Positions 10,479-58,517 of a stretch of DNA of 64,000 bases are shown here, in pieces (position 1 is the stretch's first letter; the number at the start of each line of letters is the position of its first letter). The notes under the pieces are model-generated. The model made no database searches and had not been told where the DNA came from. It saw only the letters and a list, made by a program, of their open reading frames with translations. Where the stretch lies: assembly GCA_964016885.1 (NCBI GenBank), contig OZ024743.1, positions 104,470,001 through 104,534,000 on the forward strand. The letters are read 5' to 3'. This DNA comes from Eledone cirrhosa (taxonomy: Eukaryota). The translations under genes and the position numbers were made by a program.

Positions 10479-10623
10479 ATGAAAATATGTGACGTCTTCG
10501 TCAACCTTCCCCTACTTTTACTTCTGACAGCTAATACCATGAACTATATTTTTACAGTTCATGGTATTAGCTGTCAGAAGTGAAAGTAGGGGAAGGTTGA
10601 CGAATGACGTCACATATTTTCAT
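10479..10623. repeat. 145-bp near-perfect hairpin (MITE-like palindrome)
   Basis: atgaaaatatgtgacgtc...ccatgaact / agttcatgg...gacgtcacatattttcat with a short AT loop. Confidence 0.8.
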
Positions 10624-10668
10624 AGTTATGGTTATCAATATAAAAAACAAGTCATTTTCACCAACAGT

Positions 10669-12043
10669 GGAGTTAACTTAAATGAAAATATAGGTGGCCC
10701 TTAAAAGGGTCAAATTATGGTTATCAAATTTTTTTCACCAATCCTATATATTTATGAAGAAATGTTTAGAAAACAAATTATTTTCACCAACCTTATTCAA
10801 AAGCATGGATACAGTGCCCATGGAGACAAGCGATAGTCCCCATGGAGACAATCCCCACCAATCAGCAACAATCATCACTAACACCACCAACACCACGTGT
10901 AAATAAATAAACTTTAATCTTCACTTTGTGATAATACACGCATCTGCAAGTTGAAAAATGAGTTCTATAATATATCCAAGTGTTAAGGGAATTAACCATC
11001 GCGATCTTTCCATCGCTACCGCTACTACAGCAGATATCGTCAATTGGTTGAAAATTCAAGGACTTCTGAATACACAAAAGGTCTGCCCTTCATGTGGTCA
11101 ACGTATGCTGGAAGTAGCGAAACAAAATGTGTCATGGGATTATCTGGTCATGTAAAAGACCTTGTAGAAAACAGGTTTCTATTAGAAAAGGCACATTTTT
11201 AGAAAATAGCAATTTGAAGTGTGAACAAATAGTTGATATATTATATTTTTGGGCAAAAGAAGATTTAGCCAAGAAGATTTCAGAGGAATGTTGTATCGCG
11301 AATGTGGCCGTAGCAGATTGGCGAAATGTTTGCCGTGATGTATGTGCAGAGTACTATGTGGCACAAAACATTGAGCTTGGCGGGCCAAACCGAATTGTCG
11401 AGATTGATGAAAGCGCATTCGTGAGAAGGAAATACCATCGTGGCCATTCTGTGAAAACACAGTGGGTTTTTGGTGCTTTGGAAAGAAGTACCAGAAGGTG
11501 TATTTTAGTAGCAGTAGAAGAGAGGACAGCGGAGACACTTTTAACCATTATACAGGGTCGTATATTGCCAGGGACAACCATAATATCTGGTCTATGGCGT
11601 TCCTATAATACGATCGATCAGCTAGGCTTTCAACATTTGACGGTGAACCATTCGATCAATTTTGTTGATCCAGTAACATTTGCCACAACGAATCACATAG
11701 AATGCTTGTGGAAACACGTAAAAAATAGGAATAAAAGGGAAAACGAGACAGCCAGAAATTAGCTTCAAACCCATCTCATTGAATTCATGTGGCGGTATGA
11801 ATTTAAAGGAGAAATTTTCCAAAAGTTATTAGAACATATCCGTCATCTGATTCCATGCATTTGAATAAGGTTGGTGAAAAAAGTGTTTCTAAACATGCTT
11901 TTGAATAATGTTGGTGAATAATGAAAATATAATTGAATAAATCAAATTTATTTGATAACCATGACTTGTTTTCTAATTAACTTAAATTTGTTTTCTAATT
12001 TGGCCCTTTTAAGGGCCACCTATATTTTCATTTAAGTAACTCC
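10669..12043 (+). mobile_element. Merlin (IS1016/IS1595-like) DNA transposon, transposase disrupted
   Basis: Frames 10958..11155, 11127..11762 and read-through to ~11864 give CPSCG, VEIDES..RKYHRG, WVFG, GTTIISGLWRSY, HLTVNHS..FVDP, TNHIECLW, HLIEFMWR. Inverted repeats at 10669-10717/11996-12043 and 10762-10809/11852-11896. One frameshift and one stop; outer ends and TSD not resolved. Confidence 0.9.
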
Positions 12044-32011: not shown

Positions 32012-32112
32012 TATTTTGAAAATTTGGACGTGAACAACAATTATAATTGAGTGGCTGCTATTTGTAGTTTAGCAATATAAGGCTGCACTTACCAATGAAA
32101 CGGTCGTAAATA
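32012..32112 (+). ncRNA. Degenerate hammerhead (U3-A8 core, extended stem II)
   Basis: TATT-TTGAAAA-TTTGG...CCAAT-GAAAC-GGTC-GTA-AATA. Confidence 0.45.
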
Positions 32113-32159
32113 CCTGGATAAAATCCTTCTCTTAATGCTTACCTGTGTTTTCTCTTTTA

Positions 32160-32217
<58 letters not shown>

Positions 32218-32519
32218 TAAAAGAGAAATCACAGGTAAGTATTAAGAGAAGGATTTTATCCAGGTATTTATATATATATATATATGAAAAGAGTTAGGAC
32301 CCCAACGACTGAGCTCCGGCCGTTTCAACAACTAGATCCGATCCACTCTACCCTAAGTATCGAGTACTCTGGTGTGTTTTGATCCACCTGGTATCTTACC
32401 ACACTTTCTTTGTTCTTTATATATATATATGTCCTACCCATGCTAGCGTGGAAGATGGATGTTAAACGATGATTATGATATATAGCATCATCATCATCAT
32501 CACTGTTATATATATACAA

Positions 32520-37080: not shown

Positions 37081-37088
<8 letters not shown>

Positions 37089-37510
37089 AGATCAAAAGAT
37101 GGTTAAAGGAGTTCCATGTATTTTATTATGCGCATTTCAAAAACAAACATCATCATGCAATAATATTTGTGTTTTCATCAGATAAAACAGGAGAACATGA
37201 TATGAAGGCTAAAAAACACTTATGGATAGTGCAGTTTTAAATCAACATATCAACATATGTTGATTTAAAACTGCACTATCCACAAGTGTTTTTTAGCCTT
37301 CATATCATGTTCTCCTGTTTTATCTGATGAAAACACAAATATTATTGCATGATGATGTTTGTTTTTGAAATGCGCATAATAAAATACATGGAACTCCTTT
37401 AACCATCTTTTGATCTTATATTATGTATACTCCAGTCCTACAAACTGTAGAGTGCTTCTTATCCGATATCTGCATTGCTTTATTGTACTACAATAAAACT
37501 CACCTCCTAC

Positions 37511-43782: not shown

Positions 43783-46700
43783 CTACAGGATGGTATACAG
43801 AGAAGGCCCATTTACACGAGCCATTCTCGCCACTATCACCCACCTTTCATAAAACTGCCTGTGGCCAAGCACCTCTCTCTCCATTCTTATCCTCCTTCCG
43901 AAGTGATATCGGAAGAAGTAGACCAGACTATGGCCAGAGAGGAAGTTGCCTGACCTCAGACCTTTCAATCGTGTCCACCAAACAACCTCTTTCAACATGG
44001 CTATTACGCACAGAAAAACCGCCTTTGCTTCCTTTGTGAAGAGGGGAGGCGGTTTGATTGTCATCACGGACTCGGCGGTCAATTTAATCGGCGCCACCCG
44101 CGACAGCAGTTGTTCGGCGTAGCCCCACAGATCAGCCACGCCCGGACATTGCACCAATGCATGCGCCACGGTTTCTTCGTGACGCACGCATCTAGGGCAA
44201 ATCTTTTTTGAGGGATCCCTGCCCGGGCGCCCGTGTCTGTAGAGCCTCTCTCGAACGGGTAGAGCCCCTCGGTAGCACTGCCAGGCCAGTGACTTCTGGA
44301 AGTTGTCCATTGGTCCTGGGCCGAAAGTCCTACCGAACAGGCTGGCCAGTTCGTCTTCTTCCATGTCCAGCGATTCCCCAAGGGTGTCATCGCCCCTGCT
44401 AGCCACCAGCCCTCTATAGAATGATGAGGTGGATTCTCCACCGATGGCCCGGCCCGCTTGCCAGAGAGCCCTGAGCGCCTGAGCACACTCAGTGTGCCAG
44501 TCTCCCAGTTTTCCGGATCTTTGCTTGACCCAGGACTGTAGCTCGGTGAGTGAGACGAGTCTCGGAAAGGCTCGTTTCACGAACGGAGCCCACACCGGTT
44601 GACCAGTGAGGAATACCTGTAGGTGCCGTAGCCTTAATGCGTGCCTACGCATCATCAACCACGGCATCCCCAGCCCTCCTTTCGAAGGTTGTTGGCAGCA
44701 GATGGATCTTCTCACCATAGGAGGACGCTTCTTCCAAAGAAATTGGAAGAGCATGCGTTCCATGGTGGTGAGTGTTTCCTTAGGGCAAGGCACGACAGTC
44801 AGGCGGTAGTAAGTGACGGACGCTATGTAAATGTTCGCCACCTCCGCCCGGCCTTTTAGGGACAGCTTACACTTGGCCCATTTCTGGGTTAGTGCAAACA
44901 CCTTGTTCGTAACCTCGTTCCAGTTCTTTTCCACCTGGAGGTCCGGTCCAAACCAGACCCCAAGCAACTTTACCGGGCCCTCCGTCCAGTGTCCGACGAC
45001 ACCGTCAGGAGGCATCGGTCTGCCTCTCCACGTTCCGAGTTGCAGCCCGATGGATTTTTCCCGGTTCAGTTTCGCTCCTGACAACCTTTCGTACTCCTCC
45101 AGTAAGGTACCGATCACCTCGATCTCCGAGTCGGTTGATACCATTACTGTTACGTCATCGGCGTAGGCCGACACCGCTTTGCTCAATCCTGGTTCCAGGG
45201 GGATACCCTGCAACAACTCCAACTTCCTCAGTAAAGGCTCGAGAGTCAATACGTACAGAAGGGAGGAGAGAGGGCACCCCTGTCGAATGGATCGTGTGAT
45301 TTCGAACGGCTTCGAAAGGTAGCCGTTCACCTTGATCCTAGAACAGATGTGGTTGCTATGTAGGGCAGTGATCCAGCCTCTGAAAACAGGACCGAACCCA
45401 GCCGCCGCTAGCACCGCATCCAGGTAACCATGGTCGACCCTATCGAAGGCCTTAGACTGATCCAAGTTGATCAGGGCCCCACCGAAGCCGGGTTTGTTGC
45501 CAACCCTCTCTATGATGTATCGCATGAGGTGGAGGTTATCGTGAATGGACCTGGATGGGATAGCACATGTCTGCGCATCTCCCACCAGGCCACCCACGAC
45601 AAGCGCCAACCTCTTTGCTAACACCTTGGCCAAAATCTTTAACTCTGTGTTTAGCAGGGTTATGGGCCGAAAATTATTTATACTATCCCCCTTGTTCTCG
45701 TCCTTCCTCACCAGCGTGACTACGCCCTTGGCTACAGAACAAGGAATTCTCCCGTTCTGCTGCCAATTGCAGTAGACCGCTTCGAGGAGTTCGGAGAAGA
45801 AGACCGGCATTGCTAAATAAAGTTCGTAAGGTATACCATCGAGACCTGGAGATTTGCGTCTGCTACATTGGCTCAGCGCATCTCCGATCTCATCAGCCGA
45901 GATTGGTCCCTCGCAGGACTCTGCCTCTTTGTTCGAGAGACGCGGCAGGCCGTCGAGGTATGGACCGAAATCCACGCCCCGGCCCGGACCCTCGCCTCCC
46001 CCGAACAATCGGGCAAAGTGCTTTTGAAAGGCCTCGCACATCTGCTTAGGCTCCCGGATCACTCGTCCATCTTCGTCTTGCAACGACCGGATGGTGGATC
46101 GATTTCCACTTTTAGCTTCTGTCACGCGGGCCCATCCAACGGCTTTGGCCCCCTCATTACCTAGAGCACGTATTTTACTTCGAATGACGCAGCCTTCATG
46201 CTTTGCATCGAAAAACTGGTTCAAGGCCGTCCTCGATGCCAGCACTCTGGCCACATCTTCGCTCTTGATTGCCTCTTCTAATTTACCTGTTAATTCTTTC
46301 TCGTTTCTATTCCTATTGGCAGCTAACATCTTGCTATAACTTATTGATTCTGTTCTAATCTCTCTTTTGAGAGATGCCCACCATCGGTTGTTGACGATTG
46401 CACCCGTCAACCTCTCCTTAACTAATCTGCTAATCCGGTTTCTGTAAGTCTCTTTTGCCGGTAAAGACAAATTAAGTTTCCAGTAACCGGGACCCTGTCT
46501 ATGTGTTTTCTCGAGATTGACCACGCAGGTCACTAATTTGTGATCCGTGTAGCCAACCGTGCGCATTTCTGGACAGCTTAATATGTCCCTATCCTTACTT
46601 CTAACTAAGAATCTATCTAAGTACGATCTAGCTTGACCACTGTGGTTTCTCCAAGTCCAGGTAGGCACAGTTGGAAAATCTAGTCGATATCTATCGACCA

Positions 46701-47220
46701 AGTTAAAACGGTCGAGTAACCCCTTGAGGCTGTTACACCCCCCTCTATTAGGACATGCTCCTGCATAGTCCCAACGTGCATCCAGGATGTCATTCCAATC
46801 CCCCGCTAGAAGCAGGGAACGCGACGTTCCCAGAAAAGTCTCCAAACGCTGGAAGAAGTCGGGCCGTTCAGCTCCGAAAGGGGAGTAGACGGCGACCAGT
46901 CTCAAGGCCGCACTTTCACTACTGCCAACGTCTAGCACCAACAAACGACCCTCCGGGTCCGAGTGCACAACCTGTACGGCAAGACCCAGGTGTTTTTGCA
47001 GCAGCACGACAACCCCACCCCCACCTCCAGGTTGACAGAGAGATGCATGCACCTCAAAGTCATCGAAGGTGGGGGCCAGCTGCCGCATGACGCTGATTCG
47101 AGTCTCACAGATAACCATTACATTTATACTACATGACCTGAGGTCATTTAGAAGCTTTGCTTGCTTCCAAGTTGAGCCCAGGCCACGTGCATTCAAACAT
47201 CCTACTCTTAACACATCCAT
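43783..47220 (-). CDS. Tx1/L1 ORF2: AP endonuclease, reverse transcriptase and C-terminal CCHC
   Basis: 1145 aa uninterrupted: LNARGL, GDWN, LDRF, TDHK, WKLN, KSPGLDG, FRPITLLN, DQSKAFDRVDH, RQGCPLS, AYADD, CPRC..ETVAHALVQC. Confidence 0.95.
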   Translation of the reverse strand: MDVLRVGCLNARGLGSTWKQAKLLNDLRSCSINVMVICETRISVMRQLAPTFDDFEVHASLCQPGGGGGVVVLLQKHLGLAVQVVHSDPEGRLLVLDVGSSESAALRLVAVYSPFGAERPDFFQRLETFLGTSRSLLLAGDWNDILDARWDYAGACPNRGGCNSLKGLLDRFNLVDRYRLDFPTVPTWTWRNHSGQARSYLDRFLVRSKDRDILSCPEMRTVGYTDHKLVTCVVNLEKTHRQGPGYWKLNLSLPAKETYRNRISRLVKERLTGAIVNNRWWASLKREIRTESISYSKMLAANRNRNEKELTGKLEEAIKSEDVARVLASRTALNQFFDAKHEGCVIRSKIRALGNEGAKAVGWARVTEAKSGNRSTIRSLQDEDGRVIREPKQMCEAFQKHFARLFGGGEGPGRGVDFGPYLDGLPRLSNKEAESCEGPISADEIGDALSQCSRRKSPGLDGIPYELYLAMPVFFSELLEAVYCNWQQNGRIPCSVAKGVVTLVRKDENKGDSINNFRPITLLNTELKILAKVLAKRLALVVGGLVGDAQTCAIPSRSIHDNLHLMRYIIERVGNKPGFGGALINLDQSKAFDRVDHGYLDAVLAAAGFGPVFRGWITALHSNHICSRIKVNGYLSKPFEITRSIRQGCPLSSLLYVLTLEPLLRKLELLQGIPLEPGLSKAVSAYADDVTVMVSTDSEIEVIGTLLEEYERLSGAKLNREKSIGLQLGTWRGRPMPPDGVVGHWTEGPVKLLGVWFGPDLQVEKNWNEVTNKVFALTQKWAKCKLSLKGRAEVANIYIASVTYYRLTVVPCPKETLTTMERMLFQFLWKKRPPMVRRSICCQQPSKGGLGMPWLMMRRHALRLRHLQVFLTGQPVWAPFVKRAFPRLVSLTELQSWVKQRSGKLGDWHTECAQALRALWQAGRAIGGESTSSFYRGLVASRGDDTLGESLDMEEDELASLFGRTFGPGPMDNFQKSLAWQCYRGALPVRERLYRHGRPGRDPSKKICPRCVRHEETVAHALVQCPGVADLWGYAEQLLSRVAPIKLTAESVMTIKPPPLFTKEAKAVFLCVIAMLKEVVWWTRLKGLRSGNFLSGHSLVYFFRYHFGRRIRMEREVLGHRQFYERWVIVARMARVNGPSLYTIL

Positions 47221-47253
47221 GTGGGCGGCAGAGCCAAAGGAGAGTGTAGAGAC

Positions 47254-49132
47254 CTACCTTTCCGCTTCCCGGGGTTCGGGTTGCACGACTTCCATGGGGT
47301 CGGGGGTGTTGGGTGAAGGGGTGTCTTGTGGTGGTGTGGGGTCGTCGGTGTGTGGTGGGGTTGGGGTGTTTGGAGTTGTGTTGGGGAGGGGAAGGGGAGG
47401 GGGAAAGCTTTTTAGTAGGACGCGGTTTATGGGTTTGACAGAGGGTGGTCCTACGTCCTCCTTAAAATCCTTTTTTAGTTTTTGGTAGAGGTTCATTGGG
47501 ATTTTTATTAGTTTTAAATGTGGGTGGTTTTCTGATGAAACAAAGTTTACACCCTCGGTTTGTACCGAAGGATTATTGTATATGAGTTCATTTAATTTAT
47601 TATTGTTTCTGTTGATGTAAGTATAGTGTAATGTCTTTTTTTCCGATGGTGTGAGTGTTTCGAAGAGGGGAGGGGCAGGTTTGGTTTTGTTTGTTGCTGG
47701 AGGGGTGTTTTCTGTTTTGTTAGATTGTGTTGCGATTTGGGTGGGGGTTGTTTGTCCTTGTGTGTTTTGCACATGTTTTCTTTTTTTCCTTTTAATCTGT
47801 CTGAAGGACTCCGTTTCTTCCTCCGAATTCGTTGGGTTATCTTCAGTGTTGGAGGGAAGAGGTATGTTTGCTGGTAATGTTTCCGTGTTGGTTTTCTTTG
47901 TGGGGGAGATGGATGTCACTATGTTAGACTGTGTTGTGTGTTGTGTCTGCGGTGGTTGTGTTGTTTTATTGAGTGAGAGGTTGGGTGGGCCTGTATTTTG
48001 TTTTGGGGTAATGTGTTGTGACTGTTTGTGTTGTGGTGGTGTTGTGGTGTTACTGAGGGACGGGTTGGGTGGGACTGAGTTTTGTTGTTTGTTTATCTGT
48101 TGTGGTGGTGGTGGTGGAGCTGGTGTTGGTAGCAGGGTTTTCTTTTTGTTGAGTTGGGGACAAGCGGCCTTCAGGTGCCCTCTGCCTGCACAGATATGGC
48201 AGGACGGCCTTCTCCCCTCCACGCTAATGTTTATATACCCGTGGTCCTCTAATAGGATTCTGTCGGGTATTTGGGCGATGCGTTCAGGCTTCATTTGTAC
48301 TACCAGCTCTATACCTGTTCCACTGAACGCATTGCCTGTGGTTTTCCCAATGGAAATCACGTTGTCATTCATTGGATCGATGAAGCCAGCTATGAGCCAG
48401 CAGTAGTCCACATCTGGCATCATTGCATCCAGCCATATGCGTTGAGTTTTTTTTCCCATATAAGATGGATAAAAGGTGAAATTTTTCGAACGAATCGGTG
48501 ACAAAGCACATTTTTTTGCCGCCGATTCGTTCTTCATGATAATTGCTAGGCTTCCATACAGTCTGTCTTTTCTTATGAAAGTTGTTTCATTCAGTACTTC
48601 TGCGAGTACTGTTTTGATATCTGCTTGAGAAGGCTGTTCAGGTTTTTTTGTACTGTTGTTGATGGTCCGAAACTTGACCGTTCGGCTTTCAATGTCTTTC
48701 GTGAATTCTTGAGGCATTTTTACCAATAAAATACCATTCTCACCTTCACTTATGTATTGTTTTGCGTCCGTGATCCTTCGTACCACATCTGAAATGTTTT
48801 CCGCTATATAAGTCAAAGATTTCTTTGTTTTCTGTGCAAATGAAATCTTGTCGTCTGCTTTGTTTTCTGATATGATGTTATTTTCAACTGTTATTTTTTT
48901 GTTTGTTGTGTCTTTGTTTGTGTTATTAGTATTGTCATGCAATTTTTCAAATTTTTTTTTTTTCGTTGTTTTCGTCATTTAATTTTTTCTCCGCAGATTC
49001 GTCCGTTTTTATTTTCATTTTTCCTTCCTTCTCTATGACGTTAGTTGGGAAGGAAGGGAGGACTAAAGCGTGCGAGCTTACAACTCTTACCGCTGTCCCC
49101 CCACCACTATTTTCGTTCGCTGCGTTTAACAT
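47254..49132 (-). CDS. Tx1 ORF1 (zinc knuckle, Pro/Thr-rich tail); N-terminus split by a frameshift in an A-run near 48955
   Basis: CHICAGRGHLKAAC (CX2CX4HX4C) in 47254..48978. Upstream frame 48947..49132 matches the contiguous N-terminus of the sister copy at 43248. Confidence 0.8.
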
Positions 49133-50400: not shown

Positions 50401-50438
<38 letters not shown>

Positions 50439-50439
50439 G

Positions 50440-50990
50440 AAATATTAAAAAAATAATGAATAAAACAATGAAACAGTTCCTTATATTAAACAAAAAAAGT
50501 TCATTATTTAACTATCGTTTCTGGGATATATATGTGTTAGAATTGGCATGTATATTTAACAGATCTATGTACAAAATTATACAAACTATCAAAATTAAAT
50601 ACACATACCAACTCATATATATGCCGTCTTCAGAAATAATATTATTTCTGAAGACGGCATATATATGAGTTGGTATGTGTATTTAATTTTGATAGTTTGT
50701 ATAATTTTGTATAATTTTGTACATAGATCTGTTAAATATACATGCCAATTCTAACACATATATATCCCAGAAACGATCGTTAAATAATGAACTTTTTTTG
50801 TTTAATATAAGGAACTGTTTCATTGTTTTATTCATTATTTTTTTAATATTTTATCTTGACTCTGTATTCCGTTTATCTTTCACCGAAAGTGATTTTTCAT
50901 TGCATCTCTTCTTTCCATGATGATATCCGGATTACATTGAGTTCTTCATACGGATTGGACACTACCGTAAACTCTTGGTAAATTTATCTA
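50440..50990. mobile_element. ~410-bp spacer-less palindrome plus tail in (TA)n, with divergent hammerheads
   Basis: Arms 50440-50640 and 50641-50851 (10-bp duplication in the right arm); centre aaataat|attattt. Confidence 0.75.
50641..50788 (+). ncRNA. Type-I hammerhead with ~115-nt stem II domain
   Basis: ATTATTT-CTGAAGA-cGGcATATATATG-AGTTGGTATGTGTATTTAA...TTAAATATACATGCCAATT..CATATATATcCCa-GAAA-CGATCG-TT-AAATAAT. Confidence 0.7.
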
Positions 50991-51181
50991 CATATATATA
51001 TATATATATATAAGCATGTGTATTCAGTTTAGAATAGGTGCATTGAATTCTTGTGTTTTAAGAAGTAACTAAAAGGGTTGGTGACAGAAAGAGCACCTGG
51101 CTGTAAAACATTGCCTCAAAAAGTCCCATCCAACCCATGCCAGCATGGAAAAGTTGACATAAAAGTGATGATGATGATATA

Positions 51182-54539: not shown

Positions 54540-55720
54540 ACCATCATGAACAACAATACTACTACCACCACCACCACCAACAAACACATCAACAACAGAA
54601 CAATCACCACCACCACCACTAATATCACCAACAGCACCACCACTAACACCACCAACAGCAGCGCCAGCCTCACCACCACCATTGCCACCACCACCACCAC
54701 CACTAACACTGCCAACAGCAGCGCCAGCCTCACCACCACCACCACTAACACCGCCAACAGCAGCGCCAGCCTCACCACCACCATTGCCACCACCACCACC
54801 ACTAACACCGCCAACAGCAGCGCCAGCCTCACCACCACCACCACTAACACCGCCAACAGCAGCGCCAGCCTCACCACCACCATTGCCACCACCACCACCA
54901 CTAACACCTCCAACAGCAGCGCCAGCCTCACCACCACCATTGCCACCACCACTAACACCACCAACAGCAGCGCCAGCCTCACCACCACCATTGCCACCAC
55001 CACCACCACTAACACCGCCAACAGCAGCGCCAGCCTCACAACCACCATTGCCACGACCACCACCACTAACACTGCCAACAGCAGCGCCAGCCTCACAACC
55101 ACCATTGCCACGACCACCACCACTAACACTGCCAACAGCAGCGCCAGCCTCACCACCACCATTGCCACCACCACCACCACTAACACTGCCAACAGCAGCG
55201 CCAGCCTCACCACCACCATTGCCACCACCACCACCACTAACACTGCCAACAGCAGCGCCAGCCTCACCACCACCATTGCCACCACCACCACCACTAACAC
55301 TGCCAACAGCAGCGCCAGCCTCACCACCACCATTGCCACCACCACCACCACTAACACTGCCAACAGCAGCGCCAGCCTCACAACCACCATTGCCACGACC
55401 ACCACCACTAACACTGCCAACAGCAGCGCCAGCCTCACCACCACCATTGCCACCACCACCACCACTAACACTGCCAACAGCAGCGCCAGCCTCACAACCA
55501 CCACCACCAACAAAAATAACTACACCACCATTGCTACCACCGCAATGACCACCCCACTCCACCACCACTACCAACCCACTCCACCCCACCACTAACACCA
55601 CCAACAGCAGTGCCAGCCTCACCACCACCACCAACAAAAATAACTACACCACCACCAAAACGACCCCCCCCCCCCCCACCACCACCACCACAACCAGCAG
55701 CAGCAGCAACAACAACAGGC
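54540..55720. repeat. 36-54-bp ACC-rich minisatellite (mostly 51 bp)
   Basis: 'aacagcagcgccagcctcaccaccaccattgccaccaccaccaccactaacactgcc' ~18 times; open in multiple frames on both strands. Confidence 0.95.
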
Positions 55721-55794: not shown

Positions 55795-56735
55795 TGGTGG
55801 TAATGGTAGTGGTGGTGTTGGTAGTGGTGGTGTTGGTGAGTTGATGGCGGTAATGGTAGTGGTGGTGTTGGTGAGTTGATGGTGTTAATGGTAGTGGTGG
55901 TGTTGGTGAGTTGATGGTGTTAATGGTAGTGGTGGTGTTGGTGAGTTGATGGTGGTAATGGTAGTGGTGGTGTTGGTGAGTTGATGGTGGTAATGGTAGT
56001 GGTGGTGTTGGTGAGTTGATGGTGGTAATGGTAGTGGAGGTGTTGGTGAGTTGATGGTGGTAATGGTAGTGGAGGTGTTGGTGAGTTGAAGGTGGTAATG
56101 GTAGTGGTGGTGTTGGTGAGTTGATGGTGGTAATGATAGTGGTGGTGTTGGTGAGTTGATGGTGGTAATGGTAGTGGTGGTGTTGGTGAGTTGATGGTGG
56201 TAATGGTAGTGGAGGTGTTGGTGAGTTGATGGTGGTAATGGTAGTGGTGGTGTTGGTGAGTTGATGGTGGTAATGGTAGTGGTGGTGTTGGTGAGTTGAT
56301 GTTGGTAATGATAGTGGTGGTGTTGGTGAGTTGATGGTGGTAATGGTAGTGGTGGTGTTGGTGAGTTGATGGTGGTAATGGTAGTGGAGGTGTTGGTGAG
56401 TTGAAGGTGGTAATGGTAGTGGAGGTGTTGGTGAGTTGATGGTGGTAATGGTAGTGGAGGTGTTGGTGAGTTGATGTTGGTAATGATAGTGGTGGTGTTG
56501 GTGAGTTGATGGTGGTAATGGTAGTGGTGGTGTTGGTGAGTTGATGGTGGTAATGGTAGTGGTGGTGTTGGTGAGTTGATGGTGGTACTGGTAGTGGTTG
56601 TGTTGGTGAGTTGATGGTGGTAGTGGTGGTGTTGGTGAGTTGATGGTGGTAATGGTAGTGGTGGTGTTGGTGAGTTGATGGTGGTAATGGTAGTGGTGGT
56701 GTTGGTGAGTTGATGGTGGTAATGGTAGTGGTTGT
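55795..56735. repeat. 30-bp minisatellite
   Basis: 'gtgagttgatggtggtaatggtagtggtggtgttg'-type units ~30 times. Confidence 0.95.
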
Positions 56736-58517
56736 GATGTGGTGGTAAAAATAGTGGTGGAAGTGGTTGTGGTGGGGGAGATGATGATTTTGTTGGTGGT
56801 CATATATATATAGCGGATGTAAAAAAAAACCAAATATATATATATATATAAATATATATATAGTGGAGTAAAAAAAAATATATATATAAATATAACAAAG
56901 GAAGTGTGGTAAGAAAACAGGTGGACCATAACGCACCAGAGTACTCAGAAATAGCTGTCGAAACGGCTTGAGCTCTGACATCGGGGTCTTGAACATTTTC
57001 CTATATATAAATATATATATATATATATTATATTTATTGTGTGTGTGTATAGATTTGGAGCGACAATATGTCTAGTTAATTAACTTGTCTTTTTGTTTTA
57101 TTTTCACGTAGTCACCTTTCATCTGTGAAAGGACACACAACACCATGTCTTCTCTGTAAATTTCTCAGATATTGCAAATGGTAGATCAGTATAAACCTGC
57201 TAAATGAATGACACCATGCCCTCTCTGTAAACTTCTCAATTATTACAAATGTTACACCATGTTCTCTCTGTAACCTTTCCAAATGAAACAGATGTTAAAC
57301 CATTATAGCTTTTGAAGGACTCCATGTTCATTCTGTAAACTTCACAAATATTACAGATACAAAACATCGTAATATCAGATGTGAGACATCACAATGTTAT
57401 GATGATTAGGTGTGGTATTTGTTCCAGCTTTTTATGTTTTGAGTTCAAATCCATTGAGGTCAACTTTCCTATTACCAGTGTTGATAAAAATTACGTGACA
57501 GCCAGCTACTGGGAGTGGAGGATGATATAATCAAGTTACCCCTTCCTTCAAATTGTTGACCTCGTTCCTAAATTAGAAACTTCTATATAACATATCTAAA
57601 ACTGGCTTGTTCTTCTTTAGTAACACAAAATACCTTTACCACAGAAGGATTTCTGACAAATTATCTGCAATTCACAGGTGTGGTTCATGTTAGATTACTA
57701 CTCATGTATGTGTGACACAACAACTGCTATAAACATATTTTTTTCGGTGGTTGCTTCCTTTTAATCCCTGACATTAGCTAATGAGGAGTGGGTGGACTTT
57801 ATACTGTCCTTAGACCTGCTAGAAATAGCAGTGACATCTTTCTCAAATTACACCTTACCCTCTTAAATAGATGTGGTTCTTAGTCAACTTAAAATAAACA
57901 TTTAAGTCTGCCTCCATAAAAGACCATCTGACTAATTTCCAAACATTCACACTGAAGCACACTACAAGAGATGTGCATAAATTTCACACTACCAAGGACT
58001 CCTTTTACTTAAATGAGTTCCCCTTGGGTCCTTCTCTTTAAGTACTACTCATATATATATATATATGACATAATAATCATAAACCTATGACATAACAACT
58101 GCTACATGTGTAAATATCTTAGTCAGCATCCACGAAAAAGACCATCTAACTGATTGCTATTCAACTAGTACCACACTACAACAGATGTTCCCAAAGACCC
58201 TTTTAGTTAAATGAATTCTCCTATGGACCCATCCCACAACTTTAATTCCTCCCCTCTCTGATTGTTTTTCGTTTATCTCATGTTAGATCAGTATAGTGTT
58301 TGGAAAGACAGATGACACCATGTCCTCTCTGTAAAATTCTGAAATATTACTGATGCTGGAGATCATTATTGTTAAGAACCAATGCACTACAGCCATTAAA
58401 TTTCCTCTGTCTCTTCTACCATGATTTAATCTGTTTTTCTTTTTCTGAGCTGGCCAACTGTATACCAGGCCTGAGTAACTAATGGATGGCATTTGAGTGA
58501 AATTAAGGGTATCTATG

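Follow-up and report, generated by a model that had tools for sequence, protein, structure and literature searches.

Inverted pseudo-LTRs of a Hydra-clade Penelope-like element are probably primed from both ends of one target cut on a single sense RNA

It is likely that both ends of a single cut in an (AT)n microsatellite served as primers for reverse transcription of the same sense RNA, each copy running off at a probably capped 5′ end, to give the head-to-head pseudo-LTRs (pLTRs) of the Penelope-like element (PLE) described here. The palindrome from which this reading starts lies in a 64,000-nt stretch of Eledone cirrhosa DNA (contig OZ024743.1; hereafter the window), and copies of three families were sought by running patterns against the contigs of a 3.0-Gb animal genome. 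In the proposed series of events, an internal promoter would start the RNA at TTC↓A (+1, window 50641; arrows mark the turning point), and the endonuclease of the element would cut both strands of (AT)n. One DNA end would then prime at the end of the tail (~+349) and the other at +214. The +214 copy, having the shorter path, would usually reach +1. The +349 copy would either stop early, leaving an L1-like non-overlapping inversion, or displace the other copy and reach +1 too, leaving a palindrome. Copying of the cap would often add a C (G on the sense strand), and the cDNA ends would finally be joined bluntly, as in the window, or by 1–4 nt of microhomology.

The earlier note on this DNA had described a spacer-less palindrome whose axis is the first base of hammerhead stem I, a stem II of about 115 nt with imperfect closing pairs, and a stem III change in the left copy, and all of these observations hold (Table 1). 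The left arm, read in reverse, is complementary to 50641–50854, the axis lies between 50640 and 50641, where ATTATTT begins, and 201 base pairs are possible between the arms. In the alignment 204 nt on the left face 214 nt on the right with one 10-nt gap: the left arm lacks one of two 10-nt TATAATTTTG repeats, and the form with both repeats is the norm in family 1, to which this palindrome belongs. The only substitutions are the C-to-A change in left stem III and one at the tip. The two arms share rare markers, one found in none of 63 other arms and one in a single arm. The junction carries no extra G, and read-through copies show TTC↓ATT at the equivalent position. The right arm, which has many genomic copies at 98–99%, continues as an unmirrored tail and then (AT)n. 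As a locus this is nothing out of the ordinary, a dead stub that a young Hydra-clade PLE left in (AT)n.

Table 1. Features of the family-1 palindrome, in window coordinates.
Feature	Position	Strand	Basis
Left flank: (AT)n target microsatellite preceded by a (CA)n run	50421..50438	.	sequence
Inverted arm, covering element +1 to +214 in outward reading; lacks 10 nt, with C>A at 50513 and a tip change at 50439	50437..50640	-	alignment
Hammerhead motif of the left arm, with a 105-nt stem II; stem III self-complementarity lost	50503..50640	-	sequence
Two 5′ ends joined bluntly head-to-head at element +1; putative transcription start	50640..50641	.	end pile-up
Forward arm from +1 to TCTAC, the 3′ end of the family; solo pseudo-LTR of a Hydra-clade Penelope-like element	50641..50991	+	genome copies
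Type I hammerhead motif	50641..50788	+	stem I 50641-50647/50782-50788, core 50648-50654 and 50770-50773
Hammerhead stem III; predicted cut after 50781	50773..50780	+	motif reading
115-nt stem II hairpin, family-wide	50655..50769	+	114-116 nt in 53/55 arms
Position +214, where inverted arms have their fixed 3′ end; putative second site of priming	50854	+	31/38 inverted arms
One-sided tail of ~135 nt between two putative priming sites	50855..50991	+	alignment, genome copies
(AT)n target microsatellite, right flank	50992..51012	.	sequence

The parent element was characterized at eight fetched loci where the sequence continues past the family-1 tail. An ORF of 807–830 codons stands behind the element sequence in five of them, two others have a 759-codon frame and one a split frame; intact ORFs of 811–830 aa thus exist in the family. 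The unit, consisting of two forward copies and the long ORF, measures 6.4–7.1 kb in five loci and 4.9 kb in one broken copy, and the hammerhead lies in the same sense as the ORF. As in endonuclease-bearing PLEs, this single ORF encodes PLE-type RT motifs along with a GIY-YIG domain at its C terminus. Pfam and PDB searches of the protein returned no direct match; it has 118 homologues, and Atlas clusters match it at 0.96–0.98, with HTH_animal and in some cases GIY-YIG or RVT_1. The motifs read by eye in protein P0001 (RWR, DKT, CNCRNKANC, CRLC, and CNH) agree with the Hydra-clade list of RW(K/R), DKT, CxCx5C, CxxC, and CxH around E and N (PMC8557442). Hydra-clade PLEs, as described there, likewise combine RT with a C-terminal GIY-YIG, a hammerhead in the pLTR and a (TA)n target (Craig et al., 2021). 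In family 1 partial tandems forming a pLTR, a 5′-truncated inverted copy and a one-sided tail are all present, and (AT)n stands on the tail side in 81 of 90 sampled copies, most of the others being read-through copies. By these features we class the parent as a Hydra-clade PLE. Its length and microsatellite-rich 3′ region contrast with the <3 kb general in that clade, a tendency rather than a diagnostic trait, and its tail with one of 30–40 nt (PMC8557442). The kind of element and inverted pLTRs with a tail were known already, while the long unit, the long tail and the very long stem II are unusual.

Family 1 is abundant. A 32-base tail pattern has 4,613 matches genome-wide, and the read-through form has 1,339, often as outward-facing pairs 1–12 kb apart. 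Palindromes turning within ~15 nt of stem I account for 416 pattern matches, and both of the two subfamilies turn at the axis position of the window. A count by eye gave 26 different junction strings for the first 50 palindromes listed: the arms overlap by 2 nt (AT) in 7, a single G or C separates them in 6, and the others have filler. These are many independent events. One locus (L059, G000:C1:34130879-34133910) carries the palindrome doubled, its two axes being identical and spaced by 268 nt.

The 5′ ends of these insertions concentrate at one position. The family-1 sample was the first 90 of the tail matches by position on contig C1; since it was drawn from tail matches by position, it is independent of the axis. 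With 26 forward arms running past the reference and 8 ending beside the anchor left out, 36 of 94 5′ ends fall at −2 to +3, against 0.74 expected, and the earlier note's prediction that axes would pile up at stem I is thus borne out in this family. Both arms start at the hot spot in 11 of the 90 insertions. Family 2 includes a second hammerhead palindrome in the window (axis ~37252) and has 10,770 tail matches genome-wide. Its sample was the first 70 of these by position, with 12 forward ends excluded on the same grounds; TTTC↓ATATG, 69 nt ahead of the core, takes 37 of the 92 ends, where 0.78 are expected. Family 3, seen nested in locus L002, has 1,716 tail matches; in the first 30, with 5 ends left out, 5 of 39 ends lie at AATC↓ACT, 64 nt before the core (0.48 expected), and further ends are spread over +1 to +23. 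Common to the three hot spots is TC↓A, which coincides with stem I in family 1 only; those of families 2 and 3 lie 57–61 nt upstream of stem I. The family-2 stub in the window (37083–37510) is also head-to-head, with a C adjoining the +1 of its left arm (G on the sense strand), and L002 contains a family-3 palindrome ~700–1,000 nt upstream of the matched copy.

We infer that +1 is a capped transcription start. TC↓A is an initiator-like context, and an initiator at +1 together with a DPE at +28 to +32 forms an internal promoter consensus of Pol II. Arms that start at +1 after a non-template base number 1,470 in family 1 and 4,247 in family 2 genome-wide. The template base at −1 is C, and the base found before +1 is G in 9 of 28 family-1 and 14 of 41 family-2 sampled arms, that is, in 23/69 sampled arms vs 4/50 at other 5′ ends (p = 0.002). 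Counted by eye among the first 100 rows listed, G precedes +1 in 31 (family 1) and 41 (family 2). In matched contexts an untemplated G occurs 169 times, vs 111 arms that start with the templated C at −1 (p = 6e-4). Of the listed G junctions, 7 among the 31 and 8 among the 41 are symmetric and could reflect a templated C on the other arm, and some of the rest could likewise derive from the partner arm. At loci L034 and L155 the extra G stands on both arms with filler between them. The extra G could also be the work of terminal-transferase activity at any run-off end; in L1 and SVA an untemplated 5′ G has been read as cap copying (PMC4859970). The pLTR of Drosophila Penelope contains an internal promoter (PMC2377424), and that element has a splice acceptor at helix I (PMC4209133). 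A splice acceptor at +1 was rejected here, no AG preceding +1, as was homing into an older copy at +1, the junctions running 5′-to-5′. A DPE-like AGTTG at +28 to +32 of the window copy fits only 7 of 56 arms and is absent in family 2, and the DPE was dropped as promoter support. Four +1 arms (G000:C1:212708791, 220282568, 224492089, and 234417553) have an identical 12-nt 5′ neighbour, which suggests a re-mobilised derivative.

The alternative that survives best, though an unlikely one, accepts two-sided priming and makes +1 a processed RNA end, where a 5′-3′ exonuclease is halted by a terminal stem or a protein footprint, the RT adding G as it would at any run-off end. Such a stop would suit family 1, where +1 is the base of stem I. 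Moreover, families 2 and 3 allow short pairings to be drawn by eye close to +1, pairing at +1 is predicted in family 2, and the DPE is not conserved. However, the predicted folds at +1 differ among families, all three hot spots sit on TC↓A, which is initiator-like by the general consensus, and TATAAA stands at −31 of the family-3 hot spot.

Two-ended priming from a capped start also agrees with the other ends of the arms. Each family has a single site at which its inverted arms end, in 31 of 38 cases in family 1 (22 at +214 and 9 at the same site in the numbering of the second subfamily), 28 of 34 in family 2 and 11 of 14 in family 3, as scored for arms that are adjacent and inside the 500-nt reference, long ones being missed. 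Forward arms end at a different fixed site. An inverted arm at +1 accompanies a forward arm cut at +100 or later in 10 insertions, and the reverse case occurs in none (p = 0.002). Where the two arms of one insertion overlap, they differ by 0.16%, vs a median of 3.3% between insertions (21 pairs, family 1); this near-identity and the shared rare markers fit a single template, and gene conversion at a later time could also have made the arms alike. A candidate recognition motif for the RT, CTAC↓AT(A/T)A..TTGCTCC, is common to families 1 and 2 at the end of the tail (L121 and L136, immediately beyond it).

The same arms bear on self-priming, the mechanism preferred for inverted pLTRs in PMC3846280, which asks for further experiments; the treatments of inverted pLTRs in PMC2377424 and PMC8557442 offer no mechanism beyond it. 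Here an antisense template or finished cDNA would fold back at the RNA end and copy itself, the arms becoming unequal by later deletion. Arms nearly identical within insertions, and the many junctions that are small palindromes, are what self-priming would give. Nevertheless, 6 of 38 family-1 arm pairs share no sequence at all, and they cannot be fold-back products, since fold-back cannot copy what the first strand lacks; the fold-back that the earlier note had offered as a cause fails on these pairs. Truncation that is one-sided and an inverted arm that stops at a fixed site also speak against self-priming, and the extra G on both arms at L034 and L155 is as expected for joined free ends. Altogether we regard self-priming as improbable, slightly more so than a processed RNA end.

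On the reading of two-ended priming from a transcription start, the axis would lie at stem I in family 1 because the family-1 transcript, as inferred, begins with stem I. The motif in the right arm has the type I order of ATTATTT (5′ strand of stem I), CTGAAGA, stem II, and GAAA, followed by ACGATCGT as the self-complementary stem III, the GUU cleavage triplet, and AAATAAT; CUGANGA, GAAA, NUH, and stems I–III are thus all present. As the reading in the earlier note requires, the core is retained, being intact together with stem III in 53 of 56 family-1 arms, and position 17 is A (91) or C (1) among the 92 intact rows listed. Stem II folds at −38.5 kcal/mol (z = −7.4), with none of 200 shuffles as good, and lacks the G10.1-C11.1 pair. 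Among its variants nine keep pairing, mostly via G-U, four break it and one is a two-sided change; owing to the TA periodicity, controls slid by ±2 score equally. At its energy minimum (−41.3 kcal/mol) the monomer does not adopt the hammerhead, whose fold at −35.9 kcal/mol lies 5.4 above it. As a dimer, stem III is predicted to form an 8-bp duplex at −10 kcal/mol; the two back-to-back copies of the window lie on opposite strands, and therefore no dimer pairing is possible within one RNA. An Rfam scan of the window gave no hammerhead match here, only microRNA-hairpin matches below threshold. Dimer-type hammerheads of PLEs, as described by Cervera and de la Pena (2014; PMC4209133), have the same type I topology, a self-complementary stem III suited to dimers and, like family 1, an extra base on the 5′ side of stem II; in contrast, their stem II has 4–8 bp and is closed by G10.1-C11.1. 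A non-LTR retrozyme was rejected, as this would need a head-to-tail tandem of non-coding hammerheads and the copies here are head-to-head, partial pLTRs of a coding element.

Judging from where the ends lie, the putative ribozyme cleavage does not set the palindrome axis. The predicted cut site was rejected as the source of the 5′ ends, with 1 of 94 there in family 1 and 1 of 92 in family 2; there may be a small excess of ends at the cut. The earlier note had suggested that complementarity of stem I guided a fold-back or template switch and so fixed the axis. Besides the position of the family-1 axis, one locus (G000:C2:128973991) recommends this idea, joining a +1 arm to a +142 arm through a 7-nt stem I match, the one clear join of this kind among 100 rows listed. 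Such a switch would nevertheless join +1 to +142, not +1 to +1, and +142 starts appear in 8 of 100 listed rows (of 563), vs the arms at +1 counted above. At stem I family 2 has 1 of its 92 ends and family 3 has 1 of its 39, the pile-ups lying 69 and 64 nt upstream of the core; turning so far from stem I, these families contradict stem I as the cause of the axis, and we consider the suggestion very improbable.

Perfect palindromes are a known type of sequencing artefact, but an assembly chimera, or one master palindrome copied many times, is hardly credible when the arms in the window differ by substitution and a 10-nt deletion, the junction strings are so varied, both subfamilies turn at the same place, and public contigs of four sequencing runs have loose ends at +1, one of them a mirror junction in a second organism. 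A depth drop at +1 in contigs from runs of unspecified kind is a hint only. The search of sequencing runs listed no RNA run among those carrying the sequence.

In L1 twin priming, reportedly described by Ostertag and Kazazian in 2001, a second DNA strand is said to prime on the same RNA and to leave an inverted 5′ piece. The insertions described here resemble the L1 case in having an inverted 5′ piece from second priming, and in the extra G, which is found on full-length L1 copies. Unlike in L1, the second site is fixed, and the first copy often runs through it, giving a palindrome. In vitro, the purified Penelope protein of Anolis Poseidon cuts both strands and extends them, the tail is defined by two internal RT start sites, and ribozyme cleavage is not needed (Frangieh et al., 2024; PMC11167929). 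Poseidon belongs to a different clade, however; its start sites lie in the ORF, 30–40 nt apart, and are used without strand difference, whereas each arm has its own site here. The relevant sections of that paper contain no account of inverted copies and no mapping of their 5′ ends. Published insertions with an inverted pLTR and tail show the same 5′-truncated head-to-head pair, one-sided tail and junction palindromes (PMC3846280, PMC2377424, PMC8557442). Their arm lengths are described as variable, in contrast to ends that pile up at one base with an extra G. Our literature search, which covered few subscription papers, found no paper tying palindrome axes to a capped start or to twin priming at a fixed site.

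The origin of inverted pLTRs in PLEs is called open in the Discussion of PMC3846280 and in PMC8557442, and thousands of young copies in three families now allow a base-precise, testable model of it. Two-ended priming on one RNA agrees with the in vitro work of 2024, opposes antisense self-priming and, if true, lets transcription starts be read from DNA alone. More broadly, and with chances that we put only a little above even, PLEs may integrate by default in this way, as a two-ended reaction that copies one capped sense RNA from two start sites specific to the family. Each head-to-head pLTR with its tail would then be one event, its axis would map the promoter to the base, and +1-to-tail stubs would be promoter-plus-priming units that the protein of the element can move again. 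Furthermore, hundreds of near-perfect palindromes could yield dsRNA if transcribed through, and it is physically plausible, as the earlier note proposed, that read-through of the window palindrome would give a substrate for ADAR or Dicer.

The window holds several other features. An inverted repeat at 32105–32268 is centred on an (AT)n run. A LINE on the minus strand (43783–48978) has an open endonuclease-RT frame of 1,156 codons and an upstream frame of 574 codons. At 10487–12041 an ISXO2-like transposase fragment (11118–11762) lies between oppositely oriented, histone stem-loop-like Rfam matches at 10671 and 11997, which are possibly terminal inverted repeats. A Methylase_S match on a 35-bp satellite was discarded as arising from the repeat, with no passing stretch. 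This satellite (55810–56736) and one of 57 bp (54731–55503) have opposite strand skew.
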